Below, one piece after another: positions 22,699-55,734 of a stretch of 64,000 nucleotides of DNA. A program made the translations under genes and the position numbers. The notes beneath the pieces are model-generated. The model was not told the origin of the DNA and did no database searches. It saw only the letters and a program-made list of their open reading frames with translations. The DNA comes from Escherichia coli. Its GTDB lineage: Bacteria; Pseudomonadota; Gammaproteobacteria; Enterobacterales; Enterobacteriaceae. Where the stretch lies: NCBI GenBank assembly GCA_902500205.1, contig GCA_902500205.1_4868.1; one strand, given 5' to 3'. Position 1 is the stretch's first letter. Each line of letters begins with the position of its first letter.

Positions 22699-22705
22699 GT
22701 CACTA

Positions 22706-27117: not shown

Positions 27118-27119
27118 GA

Positions 27120-28527: not shown

Positions 28528-28543
28528 TATTCCAAATATACAC

Positions 28544-28564: not shown

Positions 28565-28617
28565 GATGAGAAAGCCTCATCTGAATTCTCCCAACTCGAC
28601 TATAAAAGGTATGCATC

Positions 28618-39889: not shown

Positions 39890-41743
39890 ATGGTAAAAAT
39901 CGTTGACTCTAACAACAACGCTCAGCAGAACAACACTCAGACTCAAGACACCGCACCACTGGGCGGTCTGGGCAACGAGACTGTAAAAGTGCAAACTGCT
40001 GTGCCGGGTACTTCTACTGTCAGCCAATTCGATAACGCATTTGGCATCCGCAACATCAGCACCTATGCAATGCACTTCGTCAACCTCCTGGACGAGCTGA
40101 AGAAAAGCAACGAATACCTCAACGCGTTCCGCTGGGGCACCATCGCCGGCGTGGGTAACGAAATGGGTTCCGCGGCGTATGTCGCAGGCCAGTGGCAGGG
40201 CCACTGGCTGTATGGTATCATCTTCTTTGAACGCGGTCAGTCTCTGCGTCTGAAAGAAACTACCAACAACGGCCAGGAAGACTACTACACCATCACTGAA
40301 CTGTTCAACAAAGACGTGCTGGCAGTAGTACAGAAAAACATCATGGAAGCGCATGGTCTGACCAATGCGAACTTCATGATCATCAACTCCGTACCAGACC
40401 TGGGTAAAGTTCTGGATGCTGAGTGGGCACGTACTCTGATGGGTCAGATGATGATGGGCATCTTCGGTCGTATCGCAGGCTACCTGGGTACGCTGAACCT
40501 GCGTAAGCATGACCGTTATCAGGCTGCAGTAATGCCGCTGGAAGATGGTGCGGTTGTGGATGCTAACGGCCACGCACAGCGTGCTGATTTCGCAATCACC
40601 GTTGAACACAGCCCAAGCAACGTAACCGACGCCACTCCGACTCTGCTGGACACCAATCAGGTACAGGTGTATCCGCGTGTATCCGGTACTGGTTTCGTCA
40701 ATATGCGTTTCACCGGTCAGAAGCCTGTCGTTAACGGCGTCTACGACCTGAAACAGCTGCAGGCTGAAATCGTAGTAAGTCTGATCGATTCTCAAACTGA
40801 AGGTGCAATGGCACCGTATGAACGTCAACTGCTGCTGCTGGCTGCATTTGCAGAAATCGCGGCAATCGGTGGCTGGCGTGACCTGTTTGTGAAACGTCTG
40901 AACAAACAAGATCGCAAGTTCTCCCGTGTGGCAGAATACCTGTCCTGGGGCGCTGACGCTCGTCCTGACGTATCCAAAATCGACGGTAGCCGTGAAGCTA
41001 TCGAAGGTTGCCTGGATATGTTCGCACCGCGTGAAGCAGCACTGGTAGTTAGCCATCGTGCCGGTAACGGCCTGGGTGGTCTGTCTACTTTGCTGTCTGA
41101 AATTGCGGTCGGTTACGACAACTCTCTGAAACAGCTGCTCGCTATTCTGAATTCCATGTCCCCGCGTGATCAGAACGGCGAAGTTGTTGCAGCGACCAGC
41201 TTCACTGCAGTATTTGCTTCTGCACTGAAAGCACAGCTGGGCGATGCCTTCAATGGTACCATCCATTGCAGCCACATCGTGAAAGCAGCCGTACCGACTG
41301 TTTCCGGTGTTTACACCGGTACTGCACAGAAACGTAGCTTCCAGGATATGGACCTGATTTCCGTTGTTACCAAACTGGGTGATAACGCGAACGACGTCTA
41401 TAGCTACCTGAACGCACAGTCCTACAGCCACCGTGAACTGAACGAGCGTCAACAGCGTATCTACATGCTGAAACTGGCCGCTTCTCTGTTCGCATCCAAA
41501 GCACCGCAAGCTACCGGTGAATCTCTGGATATGGCTATCAACCCGATCTTCGGTAAATGCCTGCTGGACTTCGTCCGTAACAACTGCACCTGGTCTATGA
41601 CTGGTGTAAATGCCTACAACACGATGGCGACCTCTCTGTTCTTCAACAACGGTGGGGAAGACTTCACGCTGTCTGGCAACGGCCTGTCTGCAAGCGGTTC
41701 CGATTTCGGTCTGGGCGTGACTCTGAGCAACTTCAAACTGTAA
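39890..41743 (+). CDS. abundant protein; candidate phage-nucleus shell protein (chimallin) or major capsid protein (617 aa)
   Basis: Strongest codon optimisation in the window; two tandem promoter motifs and conserved leader AAGGAATATTTAAAATG upstream; strong terminator downstream; size fits chimallins (about 600-630 aa). Confidence 0.45.
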   Translation: MVKIVDSNNNAQQNNTQTQDTAPLGGLGNETVKVQTAVPGTSTVSQFDNAFGIRNISTYAMHFVNLLDELKKSNEYLNAFRWGTIAGVGNEMGSAAYVAGQWQGHWLYGIIFFERGQSLRLKETTNNGQEDYYTITELFNKDVLAVVQKNIMEAHGLTNANFMIINSVPDLGKVLDAEWARTLMGQMMMGIFGRIAGYLGTLNLRKHDRYQAAVMPLEDGAVVDANGHAQRADFAITVEHSPSNVTDATPTLLDTNQVQVYPRVSGTGFVNMRFTGQKPVVNGVYDLKQLQAEIVVSLIDSQTEGAMAPYERQLLLLAAFAEIAAIGGWRDLFVKRLNKQDRKFSRVAEYLSWGADARPDVSKIDGSREAIEGCLDMFAPREAALVVSHRAGNGLGGLSTLLSEIAVGYDNSLKQLLAILNSMSPRDQNGEVVAATSFTAVFASALKAQLGDAFNGTIHCSHIVKAAVPTVSGVYTGTAQKRSFQDMDLISVVTKLGDNANDVYSYLNAQSYSHRELNERQQRIYMLKLAASLFASKAPQATGESLDMAINPIFGKCLLDFVRNNCTWSMTGVNAYNTMATSLFFNNGGEDFTLSGNGLSASGSDFGLGVTLSNFKL

Positions 41744-41770
41744 TCGAATCGGTTACTGAGTAGTTAGGAA

Positions 41771-41810
41771 ACGGACGGGGGCTAACGCCTCCGTCCTTCC
41801 CTCTTTTTTT
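41771..41810 (+). terminator. intrinsic terminator
   Basis: GC-rich hairpin GGACGGGGG-CTAA-CGCCTCCGTCC plus T-run. Confidence 0.7.
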
Positions 41811-41825
41811 GTTGAGGTTGACAGT

Positions 41826-43777
41826 GTGAGAAAGGTACCAAAATTCTACGGAATATCCGGCCGGTTGGTTAGTCAGGATAACTATTTGTCCGATTTGCAA
41901 ATAGAAGCTGCTGCCAAAGGTATTAAACCACCCACTATTATTAACGATGTCGCCGTTAACGGGGATGCGATCGAGGTTGCTGAACTTATCGATCGCATGG
42001 TACAGAACAGAATCGTTGACGAAGAACTGAACTCTGCACCGATTTGTAGTTTGGATTGTCCGGCACCGATCGCGCATCGTTACAATCTCGGTTGTAAGTG
42101 TCCGACGTGTGGCTATGTTGTAACTGAACATCGAATTGAATCCGATGTCTGGTTACGTGCACCCGATGAAATGGGTAACTTCGTCAACCCACGATTCTGG
42201 GCAATGTTCAATGCTTTCTTTAATAGCAAGTTGAAGAAGTTTGAACGTAACAAGGTCACTATCGAACGCGGTAATGACTTGATGATGTGGATGATTGACC
42301 CGTATTACCGTATAGAAGAACCAGACGGTAAACGCGCACATGCTGTGAAACGTGTATTGGAAGAACATGGTTTCGTTCGTGGCTTGCGCAATCTGGTTGA
42401 TAACCACGTTAGTATCTTTAACATCCTTACCACGCCAGAAGCCTGGAAGGAAATCTTCGCACCTAATCGGCATAACGCCGCTGAAGGTGAACGCTTACGT
42501 TTACAATGGAAGGAGCTATTCGAAACGCAACGCCATGCATTCTTCCCAAGACACTTACCGCTAATCTCCTCTAAGCTTATCGTTACTGAGGAAGGTCGTC
42601 GTGGTGTCATGGTAGACCCAGTGTTCACGGGTGCTATCGATGCGGTGAAAAATATCGCGTTACTTTATACGCGGCGTAAAGCGATCGAACCACGTTTTCT
42701 GATTAGTCGCGCTTTGAAAGCCAACCGTCAGTTAACGTACTTCCACATGGACTTCCGTCGTGAGTCTATGGAAGGTAAACCGGGTGACTATCGTGCGAAA
42801 TTGGGTTCTACCCATATCCCATTCGGTGGTCGTGCAACCATCTCACCTATCTCAGAACCACACGATGCCTGGAAGTTAAAAGCACCATGGCGTTGGATGG
42901 TTGGGTTGATGTCGACCCACATCGAGAACAAACTGCTACGACGGGGTTATTCGTCACGGCAATGTGAACGTATCGTTGCAAAAGCGGCAATGCAGTATGA
43001 CCCGCTTGTAGATGAAATCTTTAAAGAACTGATTCGTGAATCCCCAGGCGGTCTTGGGATCATGGTCATACCGCTACGTAACCCAACGCTGGTACAGTTG
43101 TCTATTCAAACGCTGTACATCGATGAAGTTGTTACCGATGTTAACCAGTGTTCGCTGCGTATCTCTGACCGTGTGATCAAGATGGCTAACGGTTCGAAAA
43201 GAGCCCCATCGGACGGGAAACCTCTGATGCGTATTCTCCTGAAATGCTGGGAAACCCTAAAGCGTATCTACCAGAAATGGGGACGAAAGTCTGAAACAAC
43301 AGATACGATGGCCTACGCTAAACAATACTGCTAACGGTTGTGATAATGGGTAATCAGCAGCGAAGCCTCGTGAGAGGAACGTTCAACGACTATCGCTGAA
43401 ATGCGAGTAGGGGTCCCAGTGGACTTCGAAGTGGGAGAACACCTAAGGCGATAGCTATGGTGAAGATATAGTCTGTGCCTTATCGAGAGATAAGGAGGGT
43501 GTCTTAGCACACCTGCTGTATACGGAAACGGTATACGGTGGACAAACAGGATTTCGATGGCGACCAGTTCCAGGTACGTTTGCCAGTCGATGAAACTGAG
43601 ATGAAGTTGGCGCTCCAATTCCGTCCAGATAACGGCTTTATGTCTTCTACTGATGTGGACCGCGTAGAACACGGCATGGTTTTACATAACGAGCTAATCA
43701 GTATGCAGAACCAGTTCCTTATTGAAGCAGATGAGGATGATGAAGAAGGCATTCCGTTGGAAGCGGTGATGGGCTAA
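41826..43777 (+). CDS. RNA polymerase beta-prime subunit, N-terminal fragment, interrupted by a group I intron (exon 1 from 41826 to about 43166, exon 2 from about 43532 to 43777)
   Basis: Zn-finger-like CSLDC..CKCPTC; NPTLVQLSIQ matches beta-prime APTLHRLGIQ; exon 2 carries DFDGDQFQVRLP (catalytic NADFDGDQ); GTG start with GAGG upstream. Confidence 0.7.
43167..43531 (+). ncRNA. group I self-splicing intron (boundaries approximate)
   Basis: Canonical core elements: Q-like AATCAGCAGC (43351), R GTTCAACGACTA (43381..43392), S AAGATATAGTC (43463..43473, identical to the Tetrahymena S element), P9 hairpin CCTTATC..GATAAGG; 5' exon can end in T and intron in G with frame restored. Confidence 0.7.
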
Positions 43778-43790
43778 TAGGAGTATTGTA

Positions 43791-44372
43791 ATGTGGCTAC
43801 AAGGTAGCACGGTGTGGACGAAACAGACCGAAGGTAGCGGGGCACTCAGCGTATTCAAAGAATCGTTTTCGCTGTCTAGCCTGGCACCCGATCTCGTTGA
43901 CCGTGTAAAAGAACATTGTCAGGACTTAATCTCACTGGAGCGTTTCCGTGAAACATTCAGTACCGCACGTAAATTACGTTATAGCGATGCGGTAGAGATG
44001 GTAAGACAGATCGAAGAGTTGGGTGAATTCCAGTTCGCCAATGCTGCTTTACAGCCATTCCTCGTTGCCATGCCGGAATATCGTAAGTTGTATAATGACG
44101 GTATGGCGACTGGCTATGAGAACGGCTTTTCGCGGTTGGATGTGTTCAAAGGCAATGCGTATATGCGTACCGATGACCACTTCCGCGAAGCAACATCGGG
44201 CATTTCGACGAAGTACGATGAAGATAAGATTTGGCAATGGGCTACCAATGAAGATCGTGCAGTACGACTGAGTCGAATCGATAAAGTGGATATTCAACTT
44301 AACTGGGCACGCATGTCAGCTTTCGACTGGGAAGATGGTGATCCCTGTTCGGAACTTGGCGCGACGTGTTAA
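43791..44372 (+). CDS. hypothetical protein (193 aa)
   Basis: AGGAG upstream of ATG; terminator downstream. Confidence 0.55.
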   Translation: MWLQGSTVWTKQTEGSGALSVFKESFSLSSLAPDLVDRVKEHCQDLISLERFRETFSTARKLRYSDAVEMVRQIEELGEFQFANAALQPFLVAMPEYRKLYNDGMATGYENGFSRLDVFKGNAYMRTDDHFREATSGISTKYDEDKIWQWATNEDRAVRLSRIDKVDIQLNWARMSAFDWEDGDPCSELGATC

Positions 44373-44380
44373 AAAAAGAT

Positions 44381-44407
44381 GGGGCTTCGGCCCCTCTTTT
44401 TTTCTTC
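44381..44407 (+). terminator. intrinsic terminator
   Basis: Hairpin GGGGC-TTCG-GCCCC plus T-run. Confidence 0.7.
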
Positions 44408-44455
44408 ACTGGGGGCTGTATGCAGCATCCTACCTTGAATTTGACAGGAGCTAAC

Positions 44456-44842
44456 ATGATTGCGGTAGGAACCTTATCCACACGTGGCTGGGCACGTACA
44501 CCCCAGGAAAAGGCGCGTGAGTTGATGAACCATTACACCGAGTCTGGCTATAGCCAATCGGTGGTTTATCGTGGGAACATTAAATCACTTGCGTATACGC
44601 AAGCTGTGTTTGCACAAGATCCCGACGGGATGGTTGCCCAGATTAAAATGGATTTGGAGAACCTCTACGGGAACGTATTTCCTGCTGGCGTTGAAGTTGA
44701 AACCAGCTGGGAGTTTTTAAAAGATTCAGATGTGCGTTACCGCATCTTCATTAGTGTCCGTGTGCAAGAAGTTGTAGACGGTGAATGGTACGATGTTGAG
44801 CGGTACGTGGATACCGAGTCGAGTGCGATTGAGGATATGTAA
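44456..44842 (+). CDS. hypothetical protein (start moved to ATG 44456)
   Basis: AGGAG upstream of ATG 44456. Confidence 0.5.
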   Translation: MIAVGTLSTRGWARTPQEKARELMNHYTESGYSQSVVYRGNIKSLAYTQAVFAQDPDGMVAQIKMDLENLYGNVFPAGVEVETSWEFLKDSDVRYRIFISVRVQEVVDGEWYDVERYVDTESSAIEDM

Positions 44843-45516
44843 TGAGCCAGGAACCTACATTTAACGGTGTACCGTTAAGTCAGATGAATGAGCAGATGCG
44901 CTTTGAGTATAACAAACTCAAAGAGATTGAAAAGGATTTGGCGGAAAGCCAGAACGTCTGTAGCGTCTTCACCGAAGCACAGTTCCGACGTCAGGGCTTA
45001 CCACTGTTGTCCGGGATGCTTGATGGTACTTTTAACGAAGAGACCTGGACGGCTTACGTAGGAAGTCCATTTGTACCCCTACAGATTGTGGACGATGCTG
45101 ATAATAGCAAACTGCTATTTACCATCCCCGCTCTGCTGAACACCGGCCGCTCGTTAATCACCGTTGACGGCGAACCTTCCCTCTCTGATGAGACTGAGTA
45201 CATCCGTCGTCAGGTTGATGTGATTGCAACCGTCGGTGAAACCCAGATGTACAAGATGATCGATTACACCCTAACCGGGATCGAAAATATGTCTCTGGCT
45301 GAAAATTCAGTTCGTGCGAAGTACATTATTGACTTGCTGAACTGGATTTTCCGACGCTACGGTGTGGGTGGTCAATTGCCATATCCGGAAGGGTTGGTTG
45401 AATACGTCGATAAAATTACTGGCGGTAAAAACACGGCGACAGCTGCAGAGACTTCGGTGCAAGCCCCAGCTCAAACGCAGCCAATCGTAGGGATCGGTGA
45501 TGGAGAAGATTACTAA
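44842..45516 (+). CDS. hypothetical protein (224 aa)
   Basis: ATGA overlap with the upstream gene. Confidence 0.55.
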   Translation: MSQEPTFNGVPLSQMNEQMRFEYNKLKEIEKDLAESQNVCSVFTEAQFRRQGLPLLSGMLDGTFNEETWTAYVGSPFVPLQIVDDADNSKLLFTIPALLNTGRSLITVDGEPSLSDETEYIRRQVDVIATVGETQMYKMIDYTLTGIENMSLAENSVRAKYIIDLLNWIFRRYGVGGQLPYPEGLVEYVDKITGGKNTATAAETSVQAPAQTQPIVGIGDGEDY

Positions 45517-46648
45517 ACCTCCCAAGAAACCAGAAGGCGTTAAGCGCCTTTTGAACACTAATGATATCCATTTGTTGCATAAACGTGTGCCCACATGGCA
45601 CATCGTGGATGTGATACGTGAGATACTCATTAGCTGCGAAAATACGCTTGACGCCTTTTATATAGCAGGGGATTTATTTGATGATTCCCGACATCTTCGC
45701 CAGGAAGATTCTCAAGAAGCTGTGGGCTTCTTGACGTGGTTGCTCCAGTGGTCTAAGGCCACTAATACCGCCGTTCGCATCGTTGAGGGAACACCGTCCC
45801 ATGACCACGGCCAGTCCAAAATAGTTGAGTCGCTGAACATCAGTATAGGCGCAGACTGTTTGTATTTGGCAGGGATCGGGATATTTTACGATCCGGCTCT
45901 CGATGCGATGGTAGGTTGGGTGCAGGACGAATATAAAGCTGCTGGCGTCGATGAAATTAATGCTGCTGCCACTGAGGCAGAAATGGCAGAACTGATGGCG
46001 ACACGAGGCCTGGAGAAGTTAGACTTTATCTTCATGCACGGCTGCTTCCAGTTTCAACTCCCTGTCGAGTCCCCTCGTTCTTTCCACGAGGAGTTCTGGT
46101 TGCCGAGAGTCAAGCACCTGATATTTATCGGGCATGACCATCGACCCAAGGAATTAGACAAGATAAGAGTTGTAGGTAGTCCTGAGCGACTATCTCAAGG
46201 TGAAGAGGAGGACAAAGGCGTAGCTCTTGTCGATTTCACCGATACGGTTGCCAGGGATTATTTCCTGGTTAACCCACGCGCGTGCCCGCAGAAAAAGATT
46301 CGGGCACAGGAAGACTTTGATGCGCAGTTAGCAGCTTGTCTTTCTGCATTAGAATACATCGACAATCATCCTTCGTCCGCTATTGGACGATTTGAAGTCG
46401 AGTATTACGCAGGTTCACCGATGGCCGAATATGTTAGTCGGTGGAAAAAAGAATACACGTTCCACATTTCTGGAGAACGTGTGCGCTCCTCTGAAGAAGA
46501 GGAGTTGTTAGTGAAGAGTTTTTCGAACGAAGCCCCAGTGTACGAAAAACCTACTCCTGAGAACTTCGAACGGTTGGTTCTCGAAGAGCTAACATCAGTG
46601 AAGTACGACCCTGATGTTGTTACTGCAATCATTAGGAAAATAGAATGA
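45500..46648 (+). CDS. SbcD/Mre11-like calcineurin-type phosphoesterase (recombination/repair nuclease)
   Basis: Ordered metallophosphatase motifs: NDIHL (D.H), GDLFDD (GD..D), GTPSHD (GNHD-like), FMHGC, GHDHRP. Confidence 0.65.
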   Translation: MEKITKPPKKPEGVKRLLNTNDIHLLHKRVPTWHIVDVIREILISCENTLDAFYIAGDLFDDSRHLRQEDSQEAVGFLTWLLQWSKATNTAVRIVEGTPSHDHGQSKIVESLNISIGADCLYLAGIGIFYDPALDAMVGWVQDEYKAAGVDEINAAATEAEMAELMATRGLEKLDFIFMHGCFQFQLPVESPRSFHEEFWLPRVKHLIFIGHDHRPKELDKIRVVGSPERLSQGEEEDKGVALVDFTDTVARDYFLVNPRACPQKKIRAQEDFDAQLAACLSALEYIDNHPSSAIGRFEVEYYAGSPMAEYVSRWKKEYTFHISGERVRSSEEEELLVKSFSNEAPVYEKPTPENFERLVLEELTSVKYDPDVVTAIIRKIE

Positions 46649-47481
46649 ATCCAATCAGTGTTGATCGCACTTTCGGGTTCTATTCAGTGTCAATCGCCAG
46701 TTCGCTGGCGTTTGAAGGTCTGCTGCATACCGGCGAATACGCCGACTGGAAAGGCGAATTGCCTATCCATTCCTATCAGGAAATATACCTGAATCTCCGG
46801 ACATTGTTCCGTAACGCCTTCTATGCGTTTGAAGAGAATAGAGAACGGTTAACACCCGACGTGATGCTAACATCGATTGAAGAAGATATTAATAATCTTA
46901 CGGCTACCGCGAGAGCGGTAGCCCCTTCGGTGTTATGCGTTCCGTACCTTTGTAGCTATCGTAGCGCTAACAAAGTGTTTCCCGAAGCCTCGTTCAAAAA
47001 CATCGCAGGCGGGCAGGATAAGATGACGCCAAACCAGCTGCACTATAATGCACTGGAACACGACACCTTAAAAATGTACGGTGAGAAACACGAAAATGAC
47101 TTCCGTCAATTCGATGTTTTCCCAGAGGGTAGCCGCGACACACTGTTACTGACCCACATGCCAGCTGATCTCCTGGCACGTAAAGATTTCCCTAAACTGG
47201 GTTTGTTGGAATCACACACCGGTAAAGTGAAAACGCAACTGGAGTGGTACACCAAACTTAACGGGAAACCCCAACATATTCCGTTTAACAAAGCGTTCCT
47301 GACGTTGTTTGGCGACGGGATAATGTTTTCACCCCTCGATCGCAAAACGCGTGGGGTGGTGTTAAAAACCGCAGAGAAGTACAGCTGGAAACAGGATACC
47401 ACAATGGACCGTATTTATAACTGTCTAAAACTGGTGAATGAGCCATTTGTAATTGAACTGCTCCGCAGGCTTATGAAGTAA
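46645..47481 (+). CDS. hypothetical protein (278 aa)
   Basis: ATGA overlap with the nuclease gene. Confidence 0.55.
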   Translation: MNPISVDRTFGFYSVSIASSLAFEGLLHTGEYADWKGELPIHSYQEIYLNLRTLFRNAFYAFEENRERLTPDVMLTSIEEDINNLTATARAVAPSVLCVPYLCSYRSANKVFPEASFKNIAGGQDKMTPNQLHYNALEHDTLKMYGEKHENDFRQFDVFPEGSRDTLLLTHMPADLLARKDFPKLGLLESHTGKVKTQLEWYTKLNGKPQHIPFNKAFLTLFGDGIMFSPLDRKTRGVVLKTAEKYSWKQDTTMDRIYNCLKLVNEPFVIELLRRLMK

Positions 47482-47546
47482 GTTAAAATTTACGTTAGTG
47501 GGACATCATGTGTGAACCACTAGACTGCTTTTCCGAAAAGGATGAA

Positions 47547-48206
47547 ATGATGATTAACCAAGAAATTTTCAAAGACAAATGGCTTTACCCGCAGACCGAA
47601 CCGGATCAGCAAAACCGTACGCGTAAACTCAACATCGAACCGAATGATTTCAACGGCGATGTTGAAACTTTGAAGTTTAGCTACTCCTTTGGTAAGGGCG
47701 AAGGTCTCTATTTCTCTGCGCCGATTACGGTTTGCCGTACCATTATCGAAGCTCTGCAGGATTGTCTGCGTAAGAGCGAAAAGAGTATGCTGAAGTTTAC
47801 TAACGAAAACGGCAACAAACCGCCCGTTAGTCTGATTGTTGGCCGTGAAGACAACCTGGTACCGTTCATCGCTATTGCCGGTGAAATCCAGGGCGTTGGT
47901 GCCCGCCAGAAGAAGTTCTACTTCTCCTACCCGAAAGGTTTCCGTATTTTCCGCGACGGCCAGCAGGTTTCTGATTTAGAACTTGCCGAGCGCTGCGCAC
48001 GTGCGTTTATCACTAACTTCGAGAAGTTCTTACAGAACCTGGAAGAGAAATATAAGCCGCGTGAATTCCAGCAAGGTGGTGGTAGCTTCGGTCGTGGCGG
48101 ATACGGCGGTGGCCAGGGTGGTGGTCAGCGTAGCGGCGGCGGTTATCAACAGCAGCAACAATCTGCACCTCCAGCAACCACTGATTCTTACGACGAATTC
48201 CTCTAA
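47547..48206 (+). CDS. possible single-stranded DNA-binding protein (Gly/Gln-rich tail ending DSYDEFL)
   Basis: C-terminal GGGSFGRGGYGGGQGGGQRSGGGYQQQQQ tract followed by an acidic/aromatic tip, as in SSB-type proteins; AAAGGA upstream; beside the nuclease gene. Confidence 0.3.
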   Translation: MMINQEIFKDKWLYPQTEPDQQNRTRKLNIEPNDFNGDVETLKFSYSFGKGEGLYFSAPITVCRTIIEALQDCLRKSEKSMLKFTNENGNKPPVSLIVGREDNLVPFIAIAGEIQGVGARQKKFYFSYPKGFRIFRDGQQVSDLELAERCARAFITNFEKFLQNLEEKYKPREFQQGGGSFGRGGYGGGQGGGQRSGGGYQQQQQSAPPATTDSYDEFL

Positions 48207-48292
48207 GAAACAAAATAAAAAATACGCCCAAGGGAAACCTTGGGCTATTAACGCTTATGCGTGGTCCTGCAACACACACTGTAAGAAGATTT

Positions 48293-48313
48293 AGATAGAT
48301 ATTATCTCAGTGC
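48293..48313 (+). promoter_or_regulatory. phage promoter-like motif, class 1 (TAGATAGATATTATCTCAGTG)
   Basis: Conserved motif copy about 30 nt upstream of ATG 48342. Confidence 0.5.
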
Positions 48314-48341
48314 AATCGACTATTCGCGGAGTTCAACTATA

Positions 48342-49976
48342 ATGAAAATTATGAAGATTAAAGACCGGATGACAATCGAGCATCGTGGTCAAGAGGTCAC
48401 ATTTATTGGCTTACGTTATCGGAAGGATAACAACGCACCCGACTACATCACTGTTAAAGGTAAACAGATTGCACGCGACAACATTCTCTTCATGGAATTA
48501 CAACGCGTGTGGGATTATTTAACGCCAGACGAACAAGATGAACTGTTCATGGCGTATCTGATGCTGGACGAGCTGGCAAACGAATCGACGGAAACGCAGC
48601 GTAAGCACATGCCGAAGATTGTGCAGACGATTGCGAAGTTCCACAAGGCCGAAGTGTATCGTAAGCTGTATCCCATCGATAAGCTGTGGATTCCGCAGAA
48701 CATGGAAGATACGCACGATGAAATGAACAGTAATTATCCGGAAGCGATGACGTACATTCGTCCGGACTATTACGAGTTGTTGATACTGGTCCTGATGATT
48801 AAACCGTATATTCCGGTGTTCCTCACCATGGGGACGTTCCCGATAGGTAAGAACTTGCCAATCGAAACACATCGGAAAATGGTGTACAATCTGACATACT
48901 GTCTGGAGATGCTTCAAGACACAGAAGTCATGTCTTTACCTGCTATTCCGAAACTGCGTGGGTTCCTACAGACAGTGATGGAAAAGGTAGAAAAAGAACT
49001 GGCAAACAAAGGTACGAACAGCACCAGTTTGTCGGTACTGGCTACGGTGCGGGGCTATGGCACGGATATGATGGAAGATTATATCCTGGCGTATGCTATT
49101 ATTAAATTGTTGGCTGTCCGTGAAGTCGGTGGTGAATTACCGATTGAAATCATGGTTAACAACAATATCGTCACCGGCATGTATTTTCTGGTTAAACAAG
49201 AGATTGAAACAGGTTTTGCAAACAAAATCTCTAACCAGCCGGTGCTGTTAAAAGCGCATCCGGAAAGTGTGGTATTCAATGGCGAAAAGGGTAAGATAAA
49301 CGCCATGGATTTGGTGCAGGCACGTTCTCCTGCACAGATGAAAGAATACGTCCGTACCGAGTACGTATTTAAAGAATACCGCTCTTTCTTGAAAACAATG
49401 CGTCTGGATAATGCCGCTCCAGCAGATGTTAAGTTATTGATTGATTCGCAACTGGCAACACATGACGGTCCTGTCTATACGTTGCACGAATGGTTAGTCG
49501 CATTAGCACTCCATCGTAGCGTGCATTATAAGACGTATACTGAATGTGGACCAGAAGCGTTTCGCTACGGTATGGCGTTGGCACAGGCAACTTATCTCAA
49601 TTATGGAATGTATGACGTTGCGCAACTGTTAAGTTGCAATATGGTGCGTTCTGAGATGTCTGCCGGTTATGCAGCCGACCCAATTCGATCTGAACTCAAA
49701 GCAGATTTAGATAGATATTATCTTCAGGAGTATCGCAACCCGCGTAATCTCGAACCGCAATCTACACCACGGGAATCACTGACCTTGTTACACAAGGATC
49801 ACATCAACCCGTATCTGTTCCATCTCAGGGCTACACCAGAAGCAGCTGCGCTGCTGAAGTGTGAGACGGATCAGCCAAACTATATACCTCACTTGTCACT
49901 GCACAATAGCCTGGCGGAGTTTATGGTGTTGAATGCACGTCGCAAGTTAGAAGAAGTTGAATGGTTTAATTCTTAA
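48342..49976 (+). CDS. hypothetical protein (544 aa)
   Basis: Promoter motif upstream; long ORF. Confidence 0.6.
   Translation: MKIMKIKDRMTIEHRGQEVTFIGLRYRKDNNAPDYITVKGKQIARDNILFMELQRVWDYLTPDEQDELFMAYLMLDELANESTETQRKHMPKIVQTIAKFHKAEVYRKLYPIDKLWIPQNMEDTHDEMNSNYPEAMTYIRPDYYELLILVLMIKPYIPVFLTMGTFPIGKNLPIETHRKMVYNLTYCLEMLQDTEVMSLPAIPKLRGFLQTVMEKVEKELANKGTNSTSLSVLATVRGYGTDMMEDYILAYAIIKLLAVREVGGELPIEIMVNNNIVTGMYFLVKQEIETGFANKISNQPVLLKAHPESVVFNGEKGKINAMDLVQARSPAQMKEYVRTEYVFKEYRSFLKTMRLDNAAPADVKLLIDSQLATHDGPVYTLHEWLVALALHRSVHYKTYTECGPEAFRYGMALAQATYLNYGMYDVAQLLSCNMVRSEMSAGYAADPIRSELKADLDRYYLQEYRNPRNLEPQSTPRESLTLLHKDHINPYLFHLRATPEAAALLKCETDQPNYIPHLSLHNSLAEFMVLNARRKLEEVEWFNS
49709..49729 (+). promoter_or_regulatory. 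phage promoter-like motif, class 1, intragenic (TAGATAGATATTATCTTCAGG)
   Basis: Full-length motif copy inside the 3' end of CDS 48342..49976, about 260 nt upstream of gene 49989. Confidence 0.4.
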
Positions 49977-49988
49977 GGAGTATTTAAA

Positions 49989-51689
49989 ATGCAGCTTGTA
50001 AATCTACTGATGTATCCGGTCTACGATGTTCCAGAGCAAGTTCGTCGCCGCATCGGCTTTAACGCATCGACGGGTGCACTGGATGACTTAGCAGCAGCGG
50101 TTGAACTGGGCGGGGAAAAAGCTGTGGGAACACAGCAGTATCAAGAAGCATTATCTGCCATCGTGGGCTTCGATGGCACCCAGAATGGTTTTGAGCGTCC
50201 ATTCATCAACGTGTCCGATGATGACAATCGTCCTGTACAGTTCCAATGGGAATCACGTGATACCGGTATCTTTAACTTCGTGGCGGTGTTTATTGCTAAA
50301 CCTCTGAATGCAACACGCACTCAGGAAACGCAATACATCGTCTCCGGTTATACCAGTCAGGCAGAAACCAGCCTGGGTAGCTTGCTGCCGGACGATATGG
50401 TGTTGTACATTAACGACATCTACGGCTTACAGGCAACGTATACACACGATGCCCTGGGCGGCAAAACATTGAACCCAGACTCATTCCGTCTACTGGATAA
50501 CTACGTTTTATCGAAAGCGTTGTCTGTTGAAGGTCAAACAGAAAGTACGGTAGATATCATTTCGATCGCGAAAGCGGCGGACATGGTAAAACGTATTGAA
50601 ATGAATAGCGGTGAGAAGTTCGTCCCAACGAGCGACTCTGTGCTATCCGCAACCAGTAGCTCTGCACCACAGTTGATGGTATCCCAACTCCAGCGTCCAG
50701 AAAACTACGTATCTGCCATCAGTAATGCGTATCTGGCAAGCTCTGGGGTAGATACCGAACTCGGTAGCGTGGAAAGCTTCTTTGCAGGTAATAACTCCAT
50801 CGGCGTTGAATCTGAATTGAAGCAACGTGGTGTTATCCGTAACTACAGCAACCACGAACTGATTGCTGCGATGCGTCAAGCACTCCAGAACGGGATGTCT
50901 GATGTATCTGGCGGCTGGAAAGCAACCAGTAAGGCGACGTTCCGTTTGGCTGATTTGCGTAATGCGATTGTCAACCCAATGCGGTTGGATGAATGTATCC
51001 GTGAATCGCTGGCGCTGGCAAGTCGCCGTGGGTTGGGTGCAGGGCTGGTTAACCAAACCGACCACTGGATTGGACGTAATGGCTTCTCCACGCAGGGTAG
51101 TCTAGTTGCGTATGATCTGGCTATGTCTATCGGGCCGATTATGTCACGTAACCTGATTGGTGAAGTGAGCTTTGTCTTTGATAACCGCAACACAGATATC
51201 ATGATAGAGCCTACGCTGGAAGTTATTCCTAACTCAGTCAGCAGCATCACGCACCATCAGTTACCTGCTGCTTTAGGTCGTCGTTTCTTGCAGAACATGA
51301 AAGAAGCGATGGTTCAGGTTACTAAACATAACCATATTCGCTGCCACATGCTGGTCACCGCATTGTTGGGGACCGTTACTCGTATTGAAATCCGTGTCGA
51401 CGACGAACCGCTGGAATATTACACCTACGCGTCGTTTATGCAATTCCGTCTCCATACCGGCAACACCACCGATCTCAAATACGTTGGTGAGCTGGCACAG
51501 AACACCGCAACGCTGTTGAAAGCCGTGGAAGAAGGTTATACAGAATTCGAGAAAGGCCAAGGCCGGGGTCGAATGCTATCTAACATTCCAACTAACACAG
51601 GTGGCTTAGATCCTCTTGGAGGTCTTGACCTGGGTGGTGGCTTAGGCGGTATAGGCGGAAACGGACTCGGCAACGGTCTCATTGATTAA
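49989..51689 (+). CDS. hypothetical protein with Gly-rich low-complexity C-terminal tail (566 aa)
   Basis: Conserved leader TAAGGAGTATTTAAAATG; C-terminus GGLDPLGGLDLGGGLGGIGGNGLGNGL. Confidence 0.6.
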   Translation: MQLVNLLMYPVYDVPEQVRRRIGFNASTGALDDLAAAVELGGEKAVGTQQYQEALSAIVGFDGTQNGFERPFINVSDDDNRPVQFQWESRDTGIFNFVAVFIAKPLNATRTQETQYIVSGYTSQAETSLGSLLPDDMVLYINDIYGLQATYTHDALGGKTLNPDSFRLLDNYVLSKALSVEGQTESTVDIISIAKAADMVKRIEMNSGEKFVPTSDSVLSATSSSAPQLMVSQLQRPENYVSAISNAYLASSGVDTELGSVESFFAGNNSIGVESELKQRGVIRNYSNHELIAAMRQALQNGMSDVSGGWKATSKATFRLADLRNAIVNPMRLDECIRESLALASRRGLGAGLVNQTDHWIGRNGFSTQGSLVAYDLAMSIGPIMSRNLIGEVSFVFDNRNTDIMIEPTLEVIPNSVSSITHHQLPAALGRRFLQNMKEAMVQVTKHNHIRCHMLVTALLGTVTRIEIRVDDEPLEYYTYASFMQFRLHTGNTTDLKYVGELAQNTATLLKAVEEGYTEFEKGQGRGRMLSNIPTNTGGLDPLGGLDLGGGLGGIGGNGLGNGLID

Positions 51690-51701
51690 GGATTATTAAC
51701 C

Positions 51702-53069
51702 ATGAAATTGATTGAATTCTACCGTTCGTTTCTGACCTCGCTCGGATACGGATTCGAAGGTGACATGTTGACCATCGATGATGGTCATCCGGCAATGTTC
51801 ACCTACAACAAAGTGAAGCGCCGCTTGGTGCTTCCAACTGCAGCGATGATTAAGCGTGGGTTGGAAGATGACGAAGGTAGTGAATGTCATGCGTTCCACC
51901 CACTGTGTGAATCGGTACTGGCTGGCGAATCTGGAACGATTCGTTTCCTGAAGAAAGCCATCAGCGCGAACCTCTTCCTGAAAAGCTTCGAGTTAATCGA
52001 TGCGATTTTGGAAACAGCAGCCGAAGGAAAAAATATCCGTCTGGCATCGTACAAGAAGTTTTTAAGCGATGTGGTTTGTGCTGACCTGAAAGATCCAACG
52101 ATGGATAAGAAACTGGTTCAGAGCTGGCACGCAGTGAAGAACTACGTTTACGGGTTGCTGGAAGAAGATAAAAAGACAAAGATCACCAGTATCTTCATCT
52201 CCAGCGATATGACCATTGAAGGTATCAAATATATCCGCGTGGCGAACTACAAACACATGTTTGAAGAAGAGTCACTGGATGGTACGGCAACATTCTTCGG
52301 TGCCAAGCTCCAGCGTAAGCAGGATAAGGTCATTATCTTTAACCTGCTAACTGCAGTGTTTGGTTGGTATCCTTCGGTTACGGGTTCTAACGATCCGCGT
52401 CCGTACTTCGGTTCTTTGGCACGCGGTTGGGCACAATACGTGACCAACTACAATCAAGTGGTTCGTGGTCTGCGTGACCACACTCCACTGCGTCCGTTAG
52501 AAGAAGAATGGATTGGCCAACTGGATAACATGAGCGTTTATGATAACGTTATCCAAACTCTGCCGTATAATACCGGCCCACGTAACGATCAGGCAACAGA
52601 CACCACCGCAACGGATTTCCGTATCGGGCGTACACCTGCCGGTACAAAGCCGGTCGTTGCTTTAGCTTCTCAACAAGCTCCGCAGGAAAATCTTGATCTC
52701 AACGATCCGGTAAACTATTTCCGTGCGAAGAAAGCGCAACAGGCGTCTTCAGCTAATAGCTTCAATGCGTTAGCACCGAAGATTCAGGAAGCGCTGCGTG
52801 AGAACAACGGCCATTTACCGAAAGGGACAATTAAAGAACTGTCTCTCGGTGAAGCGCTGCGTGGTAATGCGGTGACGAAAGAAAGTGGTCTGGGTTCTGG
52901 TTTGCTGGGAAGTAGTAATAATCTCTTGGGGGGTAGCACGCAGTTGGGCGGCGGTAGCACCAACCTCTTAGGAGGGAGTAGTGACGTGTTAGGTGGTCTG
53001 GGTGGTTTAGGTGGCGGAAGTAGCAGCATTTTAGGCAACCTACCATTCTCATCAGCTAATTTACGTTAA
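51702..53069 (+). CDS. hypothetical protein with Gly/Ser/Leu-rich low-complexity C-terminal tail (455 aa)
   Basis: C-terminal repeats of LLGG/LGG over the last 80 residues or so; terminator downstream. Confidence 0.6.
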   Translation: MKLIEFYRSFLTSLGYGFEGDMLTIDDGHPAMFTYNKVKRRLVLPTAAMIKRGLEDDEGSECHAFHPLCESVLAGESGTIRFLKKAISANLFLKSFELIDAILETAAEGKNIRLASYKKFLSDVVCADLKDPTMDKKLVQSWHAVKNYVYGLLEEDKKTKITSIFISSDMTIEGIKYIRVANYKHMFEEESLDGTATFFGAKLQRKQDKVIIFNLLTAVFGWYPSVTGSNDPRPYFGSLARGWAQYVTNYNQVVRGLRDHTPLRPLEEEWIGQLDNMSVYDNVIQTLPYNTGPRNDQATDTTATDFRIGRTPAGTKPVVALASQQAPQENLDLNDPVNYFRAKKAQQASSANSFNALAPKIQEALRENNGHLPKGTIKELSLGEALRGNAVTKESGLGSGLLGSSNNLLGGSTQLGGGSTNLLGGSSDVLGGLGGLGGGSSSILGNLPFSSANLR

Positions 53070-53079
53070 GCGTTAGAAA

Positions 53080-53107
53080 GAAGGGACTGGGCGTCCCTTC
53101 TTTTTTT
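53080..53107. terminator. intrinsic terminator (probably bidirectional)
   Basis: Hairpin GAAGGGAC-TGGG-CGTCCCTTC plus T-run. Confidence 0.7.
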
Positions 53108-53430
53108 CAAGATTCTACGATAGTCGATAAGATGTTACTTACCACACCGACACTAGGAACCAATAAGGTTCTTATCTCTGGCGTGAAATCAAACGGAGTA
53201 GAAATTCCGTTCATTAACATCATCGGATAAATAATACTATTATCGTACTGTTTGAGACGACAGTACGCGTAGAAACTGTGTACCTCTGGGTAGGCATATT
53301 TTGGGTCAACAACTTCTTCTGTAGTATCTGGGTGTTTGCGAAGGAAGTCTGTATAGTCATGCAACACCTTATACTTGGTCGAATCAGGCGAAGGTATTAT
53401 TTCGGATAAGGTAGCAAATTTATCTAGCAT
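53107..53430 (-). CDS. hypothetical protein (107 aa)
   Basis: AGGAGA upstream of the minus-strand ATG 53430. Confidence 0.55.
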   Translation of the reverse strand: MLDKFATLSEIIPSPDSTKYKVLHDYTDFLRKHPDTTEEVVDPKYAYPEVHSFYAYCRLKQYDNSIIYPMMLMNGISTPFDFTPEIRTLLVPSVGVVSNILSTIVES

Positions 53431-53450: not shown

Positions 53451-53474
53451 CAGATAGATATTATCTTACCGAGG
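53451..53474 (+). promoter_or_regulatory. phage promoter-like motif, class 1 (CAGATAGATATTATCTTACCGAGG)
   Basis: Conserved motif copy about 25 nt upstream of the RNAP beta gene start. Confidence 0.5.
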
Positions 53475-53496: not shown

Positions 53497-55734
53497 ATGA
53501 AAACACCAGTCGAACTCATGTCAAGCGTTGCTGACCGTGAGGTGAATATCACTGGCGTATCTGGGGCACGTGCCTCAATGGTGGGTGGACATATGAAGTC
53601 GGCGGTACCACTGGACAATCCAGATCCGACTATCCATTTTACCGGCGCTGATGTGAACTACCACGATTATTGTTTTAACGATATCGTGGAAGATAGTGGT
53701 ACTGTGTGCAGTTACACAACCAAAGAAGGTGTTACTCGTGCAGCTGTTTTTGCACGCTATGGTCGTGAAGGGGATCACGATCCGCTCCAGCATGTTATCT
53801 TCTTCACGCGCGCAGATTTAACCAACCAGCGCAAAGTGATGATTGATGTAATCGATATTAAGTATTACACCAACCACGATAACATTTTCTCGTCTAAGAA
53901 AGAGGCTACTGGGAAACTTCAGGCGTTGCTGCGCGGACAGACGCAGCACCTGGAAAAAGATGAAATGCTTACCGTACTGCCGGCACAGAAAGACGGTGAG
54001 TTTGTCGATGGGGTCAATCTGCACACTGTGACAATGTCGCACCCAGACATTATCGAGGACTCGTACACCATCTCCGAAACTGCAGCGAAGGCGATGCACG
54101 CTTATGGTTTGCGTGCAATCGACTTTACCTTGCGCGACGACGAGTACCTGCTTGATACGTATGGGACAACGGGTATTGATGGCGTTCGTCGGCCACAGTA
54201 CCTGCCCAATAAAGGACAGGCAATTCGCGATGATGGGTTGGTTATAGCCGCGCGTCGTTTCGATAAGCTGTGGGCGGCTATTGACTCGCACGTGGGCGAA
54301 ACACAACATATCTCTCCGCACTTCGACCGTTGTGAGTATGTTGACGCTGACCCTGAGCATTACAAAGCGCGTCAGGCCGGCGACTTTGAAAAGATGGAAC
54401 GTACTGGTTCTCGTGTCGTTGATATTCAGGTATGGCGGGACGAAACCAAATGCGATCGTGGTGTTAACAATATCGCATGTACCGAAGAGAACAAACGCGA
54501 GTTAGATCACTACGCGAACGCTTTGAAACGTTTTTACAATGATATCGTGCGGTTCTATTTTGCGATGTCCAAAGACAAGAACATTGTCTGGTCACCGAAA
54601 GCGTTTGAGATCCTTGACAAGGCGTTCTGTTCTGAGACGTATGAAGTCTATAACGACTTCCGTGAAGAGATTGGTCGTGAATACGATGAAGCCATGCGCA
54701 AAGGCGAGTATAACCGTTCTGCTGATAAGAACGTGTTAAACAAACTGGCGCAGCCGGTTCAGCGTGGTCTCTGGGACCCAATTGGTAGTTACACGATACG
54801 CATCGTGGTACGTTATCCAATCCCAGTTACCGTCTCATCGAAAATCACCGACCGTTCAGGTACAAAAGGTATCGTGGGTGCAGTGCGGCCTGATGAAGAA
54901 ATGCCGATTAACGAGTTCGGAGAACGTGTGCATGTCATTCGTTCCATGAACGCCGTAATTCGTCGTTCGACTTATGCTGCGCTGTTCCACATGTATTGGT
55001 CTGCTGCATCCGAGCAGTTGAAGATGCGGTTGAAACCTTTACTTGCCGCCAACCAGGTTGACGAAGCCTGGGAAATCCTGATGGACTATATCGATCGCTA
55101 TAACCCACGCTGGACATTCTATCTCAATGCCAGTCACCCGGATACTGGGTCACGTCTGGAACTCTTTAAAGAGATTTACGACTTCACGATTCGTATCTGG
55201 CTTCCCCACGAATTGAATGCTACCCAGGTAGAAATCTGCCGTGCTCTAGGCGAGTATGCACCACGCAAGTCTAAGCTACTGATTACTAACTATCAGGGTG
55301 AGAAAGAGTGGACGAAGAACCAGTTCTACGTCGGCATGGTAGAGACTCTGCGCCTGGATAAAACCGGTCGTGAGTTCTCCAGTATCTCGTCGATGTACAC
55401 GAACTATTTGGGTTGTATTGATGCATCCAACCAAGGACGTGGTTCATATCCGATTAACCTGAAAGGGTTGAAGTGGGGTGGTCCTTCCGAGCAGCGTCTT
55501 ACCGACGGCTTTGGTCCGGGCAACTTCCCCGAAACTCATGACCGCGCTAATAACCCTGCGGTACACCGTGCGATCGTAACGGGGCTGTATAACTCGCCAA
55601 CACCAACCAATCCGGGGGTGCTGGTCGATCGTAAGAAACTGCCAATGGGTGATTCGCAGATTGACAGGATGATACGTAACATCCATCGCTGTGAAGGTTT
55701 TGAATTAGTGCGTCCAATTCGGGAGGATAAATAA
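53497..55734 (+). CDS. RNA polymerase beta subunit, C-terminal portion (split-gene form)
   Basis: DRSGTKGIVGAVRPDEEMPINEFGERVHVIRSMN matches bacterial beta GRHGNKGVISKI.PIEDMPYDENG..PSRMN; EDSYTISE and LDKTGREFSSIS match further beta blocks. Confidence 0.75.
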   Translation: MKTPVELMSSVADREVNITGVSGARASMVGGHMKSAVPLDNPDPTIHFTGADVNYHDYCFNDIVEDSGTVCSYTTKEGVTRAAVFARYGREGDHDPLQHVIFFTRADLTNQRKVMIDVIDIKYYTNHDNIFSSKKEATGKLQALLRGQTQHLEKDEMLTVLPAQKDGEFVDGVNLHTVTMSHPDIIEDSYTISETAAKAMHAYGLRAIDFTLRDDEYLLDTYGTTGIDGVRRPQYLPNKGQAIRDDGLVIAARRFDKLWAAIDSHVGETQHISPHFDRCEYVDADPEHYKARQAGDFEKMERTGSRVVDIQVWRDETKCDRGVNNIACTEENKRELDHYANALKRFYNDIVRFYFAMSKDKNIVWSPKAFEILDKAFCSETYEVYNDFREEIGREYDEAMRKGEYNRSADKNVLNKLAQPVQRGLWDPIGSYTIRIVVRYPIPVTVSSKITDRSGTKGIVGAVRPDEEMPINEFGERVHVIRSMNAVIRRSTYAALFHMYWSAASEQLKMRLKPLLAANQVDEAWEILMDYIDRYNPRWTFYLNASHPDTGSRLELFKEIYDFTIRIWLPHELNATQVEICRALGEYAPRKSKLLITNYQGEKEWTKNQFYVGMVETLRLDKTGREFSSISSMYTNYLGCIDASNQGRGSYPINLKGLKWGGPSEQRLTDGFGPGNFPETHDRANNPAVHRAIVTGLYNSPTPTNPGVLVDRKKLPMGDSQIDRMIRNIHRCEGFELVRPIREDK

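Follow-up and report, generated by a model that had tools for sequence, protein, structure and literature searches.

The main question on the phage nucleus of the nucleus-forming jumbo phages (Chimalliviridae) is by what route folded proteins pass through the closed chimallin shell, and a pore, a flippase, and an unfoldase are the candidates. Import is licensed by PicA/Imp1 (gp69 of phage phiKZ), a protein of the chimallivirus core genome that forms one or two puncta on the nuclear shell and is essential, as described for the phiKZ, PhiPA3, and Goslar proteins. Missense mutations on distinct folded surfaces of PicA/Imp1 abolish the import of specific cargos, and for entry into the phage nucleus a cargo relies on patches of its folded surface and not on terminal signals. 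Knock-down of PicA in Goslar blocks maturation of the nucleus, and only missense escape mutations are tolerated in the gene. Here we analyze two adjacent open reading frames (ORFs), ORF1 and ORF2, encoded in a 64,000-nucleotide (nt) stretch of DNA deposited as Escherichia coli (GenBank assembly GCA_902500205.1; the whole stretch is called the window), which are orthologs of PicA/Imp1 and of phiKZ gp70 and which both end in disordered, Gly-rich tails.

Several proteins of the phage nucleus are relevant for this comparison. In PhiPA3, gp61, gp63, and gp64, the homologs of ChmC, PicA, and gp70, respectively, are early proteins that were recovered by proximity labeling with ChmA, localize to the shell, and did not turn up when virions were analyzed by mass spectrometry; two of them, gp63 and gp64, co-purify with ChmB. 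Imp1 of phiKZ binds gp67 (ChmC/Imp6) with a stoichiometry of 1:2. ChmC is a Whirly-fold RNA-binding protein, and deletion of its disordered N/G-rich C-terminal region abolishes the formation of RNA–protein condensates. The protomers of ChmA are joined by flexible N- and C-terminal arms (NTS/CTS) with disordered linkers that dock on neighboring protomers. In a published table of transposon insertions in phiKZ, as its columns were read, there are no sites in gp68 and gp69 and one in gp70. Reviews of 2025–2026 assign no function to gp70.

The DNA of the window is 99.5% identical to Escherichia phage vB_EcoM_EC001 (EC001) and 98.7% identical to Salmonella phage SPN3US (genus Seoulvirus), and homology and synteny show it to derive from an SPN3US-like member of the Chimalliviridae. 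Its gene order corresponds to that of phiKZ gp65 to gp75, i.e., an SbcD-like nuclease, gp66, gp67 (ChmC), gp68, gp69 (PicA), gp70, a small gene on the opposite strand, the β and β′ subunits of nvRNAP (the non-virion RNA polymerase), and a helicase. Five consecutive proteins encoded between positions 46645 and 53069 match, over their full length, the PHROG families to which their phiKZ and PhiPA3 counterparts belong. The two ORFs, which are separated by a gap of 12 nt, and their neighbors are the following:

49989..51689, plus strand: ORF1, 566 residues, PicA/Imp1 ortholog (phiKZ gp69, PhiPA3 gp63, SPN3US gp31), folded part at residues 1–528; phrog_3141 (E 6.6e-157 over residues 1–535; phiKZ gp69 E 2.7e-179, PhiPA3 gp63 E 4.2e-170)
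51702..53069, plus strand: ORF2, 455 residues, ortholog of phiKZ gp70 and PhiPA3 gp64 (SPN3US gp32), folded N-domain at residues 1–292 (51702–52577), linker with short weak helices at residues 293–386; phrog_3520 (E 8.5e-135; phiKZ gp70 E 4.1e-122)
46645..47481: counterpart of phiKZ gp66; phrog_3229 (E 3.9e-107; phiKZ gp66 E 1.4e-103)
47553..48206, plus strand: ChmC/Imp6 ortholog (phiKZ gp67; SPN3US gp29), for which the mechanical ORF of 232 residues begins at 47508, about 15 codons before the start given by the SPN3US annotation and the profile match; phrog_3284 (E 1.1e-66; phiKZ gp67 E 6.1e-80)
48342..49976, plus strand: gp68 ortholog of 544 residues, subunit of the non-virion RNA polymerase (SPN3US gp30), with the role taken from published phiKZ gp68; phrog_3209 (E 1e-159; phiKZ gp68 E 5e-183)
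39890..41743, plus strand: ChmA, the chimallin of which the nuclear shell is made (‘gp244’ of SPN3US in Laughlin et al.), full-length match to phrog_8316, equal in length and position to SPN3US 15768–17621
53497..55734: nvRNAP β gene

The block of ChmC, nvRNAP gp68, PicA, gp70, and nvRNAP β/β′ is common to phiKZ, PhiPA3, 201phi2-1, and 12 further phages, and homology and synteny show that ChmC/Imp6, the nvRNAP subunit gp68, PicA, and gp70 constitute a conserved block between the genes for ChmA and those for nvRNAP β/β′. ChmA is co-encoded with ORF1 and ORF2 about 8 kb upstream; the SPN3US gene at 15768–17621 has been described as a diverged chimallin (Laughlin et al.). A search for loci with a gp68 alignment returned four.

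On the basis of homology and synteny, ORF1 is shown to be the ortholog of the nuclear import factor PicA/Imp1, and ORF2 that of the shell-localized proteins phiKZ gp70 and PhiPA3 gp64. For ORF2, pairwise comparison suffices to find the relatives, as BLASTP against phiKZ gp70 gives an E value of 3e-13 (25% identity over 310 residues) and tblastn against PhiPA3 gp064 one of 1e-15. For ORF1, pairwise BLASTP against phiKZ gp69 is not significant, which weighs against the identification, and tblastn with ORF1 reached only enterobacterial phages. Because ORF1 is too diverged for pairwise BLASTP, with about 16% identity to phiKZ gp69 in the alignment, its assignment rests on the PHROG profile match and on synteny: it shares with PicA/Imp1 of phiKZ, PhiPA3, and Goslar the PHROG family, the length, the position between gp68 and gp70, and the co-encoded ChmA. 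Its function at the shell would follow from that of its orthologs. ORF2 likewise shares with phiKZ gp70, PhiPA3 gp64, and 201phi2-1 gp126 the family, the position, and the succession of N-domain, linker, and low-complexity tail. Scans of both ORFs against Pfam and NCBIfam gave no matches, and neither a recognized RNA-binding fold nor a fiber-like or other structural homology turned up for either of them. A paralogy of PicA and gp70 was considered and rejected (hhalign probability 0.3%). In SPN3US, both genes are annotated as ‘hypothetical protein’ (25506–27206 and 27219–28586), and protein sequences identical to ORF1 and ORF2 are present in databases under the same name. The gene families of both ORFs are hence known already, and for ORF1 the orthology supplies a published function; even if the tails should be passive, two ‘hypothetical proteins’ found in about 40 genomes of jumbo phages of Salmonella, E. 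coli, and Proteus gain an annotation. In GenBank records LR535901–LR535913 (Salmonella phages SPFM1, 5–10, 12, 14, 15, and 20), both genes are scrambled mosaics of 4–8 BLAST pieces, with shuffled gp31/gp32 proteins as P0029–P0034, P0063, P0064, P0067, P0075, and P0076, and this looks like an artifact of assembly or deposition rather than biology.

AlphaFold2 was run with family alignments for both ORFs. ORF1 has a confident fold at residues 1–528 (predicted template modeling score, pTM, 0.74), and its tail, residues 529–566, has a predicted local distance difference test score (pLDDT) of 32–40. In ORF2, the pLDDT is about 90 for residues 1–285, below 50 at 288–330, and 26–31 at 387–455, with weak helices at 336–386. 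The disorder and structure prediction that had been recommended for the tails in the original prediction therefore leaves both of them unstructured (pLDDT <50). The linker of ORF2 (residues 293–386; 52578–52859) contains two semi-conserved elements, DPxxFF at about residues 336–342 and SLxxAxGG at about 381–388, within weak helices of pLDDT 55–70, and they may be short binding motifs.

The C-terminus of ORF1 reads ...TNTGGLDPLGGLDLGGGLGGIGGNGLGNGLID and that of ORF2 ...GLGSGLLGSSNNLLGGSTQLGGGSTNLLGGSSDVLGGLGGLGGGSSSILGNLPFSSANLR. The two tails are located as follows:

51573..51686, plus strand: disordered tail of ORF1, residues 529–566, with 14 Gly, 8 Leu, 3 Ile, and 3 charged residues of 38; net acidic, ending in GLID
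52860..53066, plus strand: disordered tail of ORF2, residues 387–455, with 20 Gly, 14 Leu, 13 Ser, and 5 charged residues of 69; LLGG/LGG units with S/N/T/Q spacers, ending in ...ILGNLPFSSANLR

Arg, Lys, and aromatic residues are lacking from the ORF1 tail, and the ORF2 tail has two Arg, one Lys, and one Phe. Phe-Gly (FG) motifs occur in neither tail; Leu-Gly is found instead. Sequence analysis shows the C-termini of both ORFs to be disordered and charge-poor, with Leu/Ile ‘stickers’ alternating with Gly and polar spacers.

In the 67 putative ORFs of the window, the background frequency of Gly is 6.4%, which gives a probability of 1.1e-9 for at least 14 Gly in 30 residues and 2e-5 expected occurrences over 19,332 residues. 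Only three of the 67 ORFs reach this level, i.e., ORF1, ORF2, and the ORF at 47508–48206 (15 Gly), and the next best has 8. As only these three neighboring ORFs exceed the chance level, the Gly-rich feature is real, non-random, and clustered. The claim that had drawn attention to the locus, namely that both ORFs end in long Gly-rich low-complexity segments, thus stands with its strings and coordinates exact and lies far beyond chance; the third Gly-rich tail, that of the ChmC ortholog, was absent from it. Gly and Leu codons are mixed in both tails, Tandem Repeats Finder detects only a 9-nt x 2.8 array, and no DNA repeat common to both tails was found. The repeats of the tails exist at the protein level only. 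Replication slippage and sequence exchange between the tails were looked for and not found. Two Pro/Leu-rich ORFs on the minus strand, 52784–53038 (84 residues) and 52831–53052 (73 residues), were rejected as genes, being mirror images of the GGN/CTN codons of the gp70 tail.

Retention of the tail was studied with a gp70 profile search of 1.84 billion cluster representatives, which yielded 372 clusters (50% identity) at E ≤ 1e-10, and the best 148 were tested. A complete N-domain of about 290 residues followed by an unmatched C-terminal region of 78–279 residues (median 158) is present in 140 of these 148 relatives. In all of them this region has low complexity, and the entropy of its last 100 residues is 3.41 ± 0.35 bits, vs. 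3.97 ± 0.07 bits in the folded domain. The tails are not alignable beyond close relatives, and their chemistry switches completely between lineages, falling into six or more classes: Leu-Gly separated by S/N spacers, which is the type of the window; Phe-Gly with SLFG or NPF, nucleoporin-like (P0078, ending ...SLFGTSNNGGLFGSSGGGGSLFGNTGSNNLFSV, and similarly P0081–84, P0086, and P0139); Q/P/M/Y-rich (Ea35-70); Met-rich with Gln and Pro (phiKZ and PhiPA3); Gly-Trp (FLC9, P0100, and P0218); and Arg/Asp repeats (36 of the 140). At least four FG motifs occur in eight tails, and charged residues make up no more than 12% in 87 of 140. The last residue is hydrophobic in 89 of the 140 tails, compared with a background of 21% in the tail body (p=5e-27), and is Arg or Lys in another 43. 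That a tail of bounded length is kept across deep divergence and has a non-random tip speaks for selection that acts on its presence and overall character and not on its sequence. In tails of the Arg/Asp class (P0085, P0087, P0090, P0091, P0095, P0097, P0107, and others), a tip of the form S-[LI]-x-D-[LI]-G...RR recurs, for example SVSDIIGAGRRR, LRLSDLGVGRRY, and TSLADLGRNRRR, and the end of the window tail, SSSILGNLPFSSANLR, is loosely similar.

PicA tails were surveyed in 16 phages and 28 close relatives, as a search with a diverse PicA alignment returned the SPN3US-like subfamily only. In PicA and ORF1 alike, an unstructured C-terminal extension comes behind the final helix and a conserved ...IPT/IPN junction. 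Among the 28 close relatives it is 23–59 residues long and of LG-type, NSLLD-type, or FG-type, whereas in phiKZ-like phages it has 24–39 residues and is Q/P/N/A-rich, unlike the Gly/Leu-rich tail of ORF1. The tail of phiKZ and PhiPA3 gp70 differs from that of ORF2 in a similar manner, Met/Gln/Pro-rich in the former and LLGG with S/N spacers in the latter. In phiKZ-like phages, PicA and gp70 mostly end alike with a short Leu-rich motif, which is exactly ...LGLL in both PhiPA3 proteins.

A comparable relationship within single phages exists for ChmA. The flexible C-terminal arm of ChmA in the window, ...SLFFNNGGEDFTLSGNGLSASGSDFGLGVTLSNFKL, is G/L/S/F-rich, like the tails of ORF1 and ORF2. ChmA, ChmC, PicA, and gp70 were collected from 15 phages spanning the family and one metagenomic relative, and similarity was expressed as the cosine of amino acid compositions centered on the class mean, comparing same-phage with permuted pairings. 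Across the 16 phages, the cosine is 0.43 for PicA tail and gp70 tail (permuted 0.00 ± 0.10; p=5e-5), 0.41 for ChmA C-arm and gp70 tail (p=5e-5), and 0.25 for ChmA C-arm and PicA tail (p=0.002). Both controls, i.e., ChmC tail with gp70 tail (−0.18) and gp70 core with gp70 tail (0.02), are null. The co-variation persists without the Vibrio phage, after subtraction of the core composition of each phage (0.40, 0.37, and 0.25), and within six SPN3US-like relatives (0.46, 0.47, and 0.41; p=0.008–0.02).

The dominant stickers of ChmA arm, PicA tail, and gp70 tail illustrate this matching. They are Leu in all three proteins in the window, EaH2, Caitlin, and Kwan; Phe in all three in the metagenomic relative L024; and Phe, Phe, and Trp, respectively, in FLC9, whose three tails all contain Trp. 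The Vibrio phage combines an Arg-rich ChmA arm and an Arg-rich gp70 tail with a PicA tail rich in R/D/S. PicA of L024 ends in ...GSFGSFGGSDMSTPAPVSGFGAFGE (GSFGSFGG...GFGAFGE), its gp70 has six FG motifs, and its ChmA contains ...AFGSDFGMSF. L024 is positions 1–13085 of the European Nucleotide Archive scaffold VALL22-1_SAMEA10739771_METAG-scaffold_8 (199 kb), and its PicA is 55% identical to ORF1; with Phe-Gly instead of Leu-Gly in the PicA and gp70 tails and a Phe-rich ChmA arm, it constitutes a natural ‘sticker swap’ within one clade. A terminal motif common to the ChmA CTS and the tails of the window was searched for, and only suggestive resemblances were seen, with no alignable motif. Among these resemblances, which might hint at docking motifs in common but on which we do not rely, ChmA ends in ...SNFKL, PicA of Kwan in ...NFKL, and PicA of CR5 in ...GFKL, and APLGGLGNE in the N-tail of ChmA (residues 22–30; 39953–39979) resembles DPLGGLDLGG in the PicA tail (ORF1 residues 542–551; 51612–51641).

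In the literature that could be searched, neither the tails of PicA and gp70 nor an analogy of phage nuclei with FG nucleoporins are described. The low-complexity tail that gp70 has throughout its family, with chemical classes that include true FG repeats, therefore appears to be undescribed, and so do the matching of PicA, gp70, and ChmA tails within a phage and the hydrophobic or basic tip of gp70.

As judged from the retention of the gp70 tail, its co-variation with the ChmA arms, and its terminal tip, a role of the tails directed toward the shell is plausible. The reading that we favor, and to which we attach a moderate probability, is that they are cohesive, flexible tethers which act at the chimallin shell and are compositionally matched to the C-terminal arms of ChmA, whose own NTS/CTS1/CTS2 arms are flexible connectors of the lattice. 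The tails would mix with these arms or dock among them, helped by the hydrophobic or basic extreme C-terminus, and this docking would anchor the import machinery in the lattice and cluster it into discrete PicA puncta. They may in addition contribute a sticky mesh at the import site, while the folded domains would carry the specific functions, e.g., the surfaces by which PicA selects its cargo. The suggestion of the original prediction that the tails attach their proteins to a larger assembly survives in spirit, since the orthologs PhiPA3 gp63 and gp64 as well as PicA of phiKZ and Goslar are found at the shell; condensate formation, which it also suggested, has experimental backing for the neighboring ChmC tail only. 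The prediction had not recognized the proteins, and the virion context implied by its proposed virion proteomics and its tail-fiber alternative is inapplicable.

Several observations weigh against such shell-directed tethers. The tail of ORF1 is short (38 residues), and the PicA tail is absent or vestigial (0–9 residues) in Ea35-70, pEa_SNUABM_48, and Eowyn; as these three phages are essentially without it, it is widespread but not present throughout, and is not universally required. PicA-sfGFP, by its name a C-terminal fusion, still makes puncta on the shell, which implies that a free C-terminal tip is not needed for localization of PicA, at least with wild-type phage PicA present. On co-expression in E. 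coli, Imp1 did not pull down gp70. An EcoRI–gp70 fusion did not restrict phiKZ and an EcoRI–Imp1 fusion did, which may mean that the two N-termini lie on different sides of the shell or merely that the gp70 fusion is inactive. The highly charged Arg/Asp repeats in 36 of 140 gp70 tails fit a model of hydrophobic stickers poorly; in the only phage examined with such a tail, the ChmA arm is Arg-rich too. Raw compositions of the ChmA and PicA cores correlate with that of the gp70 tail as well (about 0.3, and about 0.1 after background correction), so that part of the co-variation is lineage-wide, and the permutation tests treat phages as independent and ignore phylogeny.

If the tails are functional, they would offer a short handle, deletable and swappable, on the site of the import machinery and on the barrier around it. 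A lineage-specific chemistry matched to the ChmA arms could then help to account for import being species-specific and for co-infecting chimalliviruses being incompatible, and the literal FG, SLFG, and NPF repeats of some relatives would raise a possible convergence with eukaryotic nuclear pores.

The correlation of the raw core compositions with the gp70 tail would also be expected if the tails were passive appendages, i.e., entropic spacers, solubility bristles, or tolerated junk, whose likeness within a phage reflects mutational or compositional drift of the lineage. The great freedom of composition with its six or more classes, the lack of alignable sequence beyond close relatives, and the loss of the PicA tail in some lineages point the same way. 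Nevertheless, we regard passivity as unlikely: 140 of the 148 very deeply diverged relatives keep a gp70 tail of bounded length, its extreme C-terminus is non-randomly hydrophobic or basic, and there are no DNA repeats of the slippage type. Moreover, the co-variation outlasts core subtraction and holds inside one superclade, and the ChmC tail of the same genomes ignores the lineage trend.

The occurrence of true FG, SLFG, and NPF repeats in relatives (P0078 and P0081–P0084) raises a more far-reaching interpretation, according to which the PicA and gp70 tails at the import punctum condense into a selective mesh that plugs an opening of the lattice, excludes inert proteins, and admits ‘philic’ cargo, convergent with the FG phase of the nuclear pore. 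Like cohesive FG domains of the Nup98/GLFG type, which are analogs and not homologs, the tails of the window are disordered and depleted of charge and combine hydrophobic-plus-Gly motifs with N/S/T/Q/G spacers on a folded anchor at what would be a nucleus-like gate, and literal FG, SLFG, or GLFG is found in some gp70 and PicA relatives. FG-like repeats with Leu only can form phases in vitro that are still selective, excluding mCherry and admitting engineered clients; the surface patches of cargo that drive import resemble surface-driven partitioning; and there is one PicA punctum per nucleus. In contrast, the window tails have no FG and lack high valency, as with 38 and 69 residues they are 5–10 times shorter than Nup98-type domains, which comprise hundreds of residues and about 50 repeats (52 x 12-residue repeats in the FG-like domain used for comparison). 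When GLFG is simply changed to GLLG, phase separation is lost, except where another part of the repeat makes up for the missing hydrophobicity. In addition, some lineages have no PicA tail, one gp70 tail in four is Arg/Asp-rich and not hydrophobic, selectivity maps genetically to the folded surface of Imp1, no pore has been visualized, and no transport receptors are known. We therefore consider a gate of this kind quite improbable. The same holds for its broadest form, the doubtful idea that the phage nucleus evolved its own equivalent of FG nucleoporins, in which PicA and gp70 tails and ChmA arms would co-condense into a lineage-specific phase gating a hole in the shell; admission of cargo by surface partitioning into such a phase would account for import signals that are species-specific and take the form of surface patches.

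The third Gly-rich tail of the block allows one to evaluate whether the tails of ORF1 and ORF2 might handle RNA, as the disordered tail of ChmC does:

about 48063..48203, plus strand: Gly-rich tail of the ChmC ortholog, GGGSFGRGGYGGGQGGGQRSGGGYQQQQQ...DSYDEFL, 15 Gly in 30 residues

ChmC, a shell-associated protein, is encoded in the same gene block as ORF1 and ORF2 and likewise ends in a Gly-rich, disordered tail. Its tail, however, keeps one G/N/Q/Y/R composition across all phages examined and a tip that is always acidic-hydrophobic (DSYDEFL in the window, DEDMPSF in phiKZ, DDEIPNF in PhiPA3, ADDLPF in Ea35-70, and EDLPF in FLC9), whereas the PicA and gp70 tails of the window are poor in Arg and aromatic residues and vary in class by lineage. 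The C-terminal tips of bacterial single-stranded DNA-binding (SSB) proteins resemble this acidic-hydrophobic tip of ChmC. Binding of RNA by the ORF1 and ORF2 tails, or their co-condensation with ChmC–RNA at export hubs, would fit the need of the ChmC tail for RNA–protein condensates, the direct binding of ChmC/Imp6 by Imp1, and the similarity of Arg/Asp-rich gp70 tails to mixed-charge, RS-like domains. Such a function is nonetheless very unlikely, as the window tails are nearly without Arg, Lys, and aromatics, are of neither the RGG nor the YGG type nor the N/G-rich type of ChmC, and do not track the composition of the ChmC tail. That the proteins are virion structural proteins such as tail fibers with Gly-rich linkers, the case named in the original prediction as the one that would overturn it, is effectively refuted, for although fibers do have Gly-rich segments and both genes are annotated as ‘hypothetical protein’, the orthologs are early, non-virion, shell-localized proteins, the genes sit in the nvRNAP/ChmA block and not in a structural module, there are no structural matches in Pfam or NCBIfam, and the Gly-rich part is the C-terminal end and not an inter-domain linker.

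Regarding the transcription of the two genes, the promoter-like 15-mer AGATAGATATTATCT occurs in eight copies in the window (up to two mismatches), all on the plus strand, vs. 0.04 expected. The copies and the end of the unit are the following:

7484, 28544, 31508, 39736, 39829, 48293, 49709, and 53452, plus strand: starts of the 15-mers of AGATAGATATTATCT type, those at 39736 and 39829 preceding ChmA
48293..48307, plus strand: exact AGATAGATATTATCT before the gp68 ortholog
49709..49723, plus strand: exact AGATAGATATTATCT inside the gp68 gene, at its 3′ end, and 266 nt upstream of ORF1
53452..53466, plus strand: exact AGATAGATATTATCT before the nvRNAP β gene
53075..53108: hairpin with a T-run behind it, lying between ORF2 and the small gene convergent with it (−19.3 kcal/mol, z-score −3.4)
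53107..53430, minus strand: small gene of 107 residues, phrog_3455 (E 2.7e-35), the family of 201phi2-1 gp127

The placement of ORF1 and ORF2 between two promoter motifs, which had been noted beforehand, is borne out by the exact copies at 49709–49723 and 53452–53466. As copies precede ChmA, gp68, PicA, and nvRNAP β, the genes for the shell and for nvRNAP probably share one promoter class. PicA and gp70 form a unit of two genes between a promoter-like motif and this hairpin, which is likely a two-way terminator that closes their transcription unit. A scan for sigma-70 promoters found 14 in the window, not above the shuffled expectation of 10.0 ± 2.4, and it is irrelevant here because the phage has RNA polymerases of its own. 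In most other chimalliviruses examined, a gene comparable in size to the small gene lies on the minus strand between gp70 and nvRNAP β, and the published phiKZ table gives no transposon insertions for the counterpart there, PHIKZ070.01.

The interval between the end of ChmA and the beginning of PicA is longer by 361 nt in the window than in SPN3US (41744–49988 vs. 17622–25505), and the coordinate offset between the two changes from 24122 at ChmA to 24483 at PicA, which indicates an insertion or deletion within a block that is otherwise 99% identical. Low-complexity segments of a kind different from the Gly-rich tails are encoded elsewhere in the window, i.e., a Pro/Ala/Glu-rich stretch, APEPVVEKAPAVEPAPQPKAPEAVAPAQPA, in an ORF of 656 residues (61575–63545, plus strand), and an acidic C-terminal end, …GEEEDGEE, in an ORF of 759 residues (35663–37942, plus strand).

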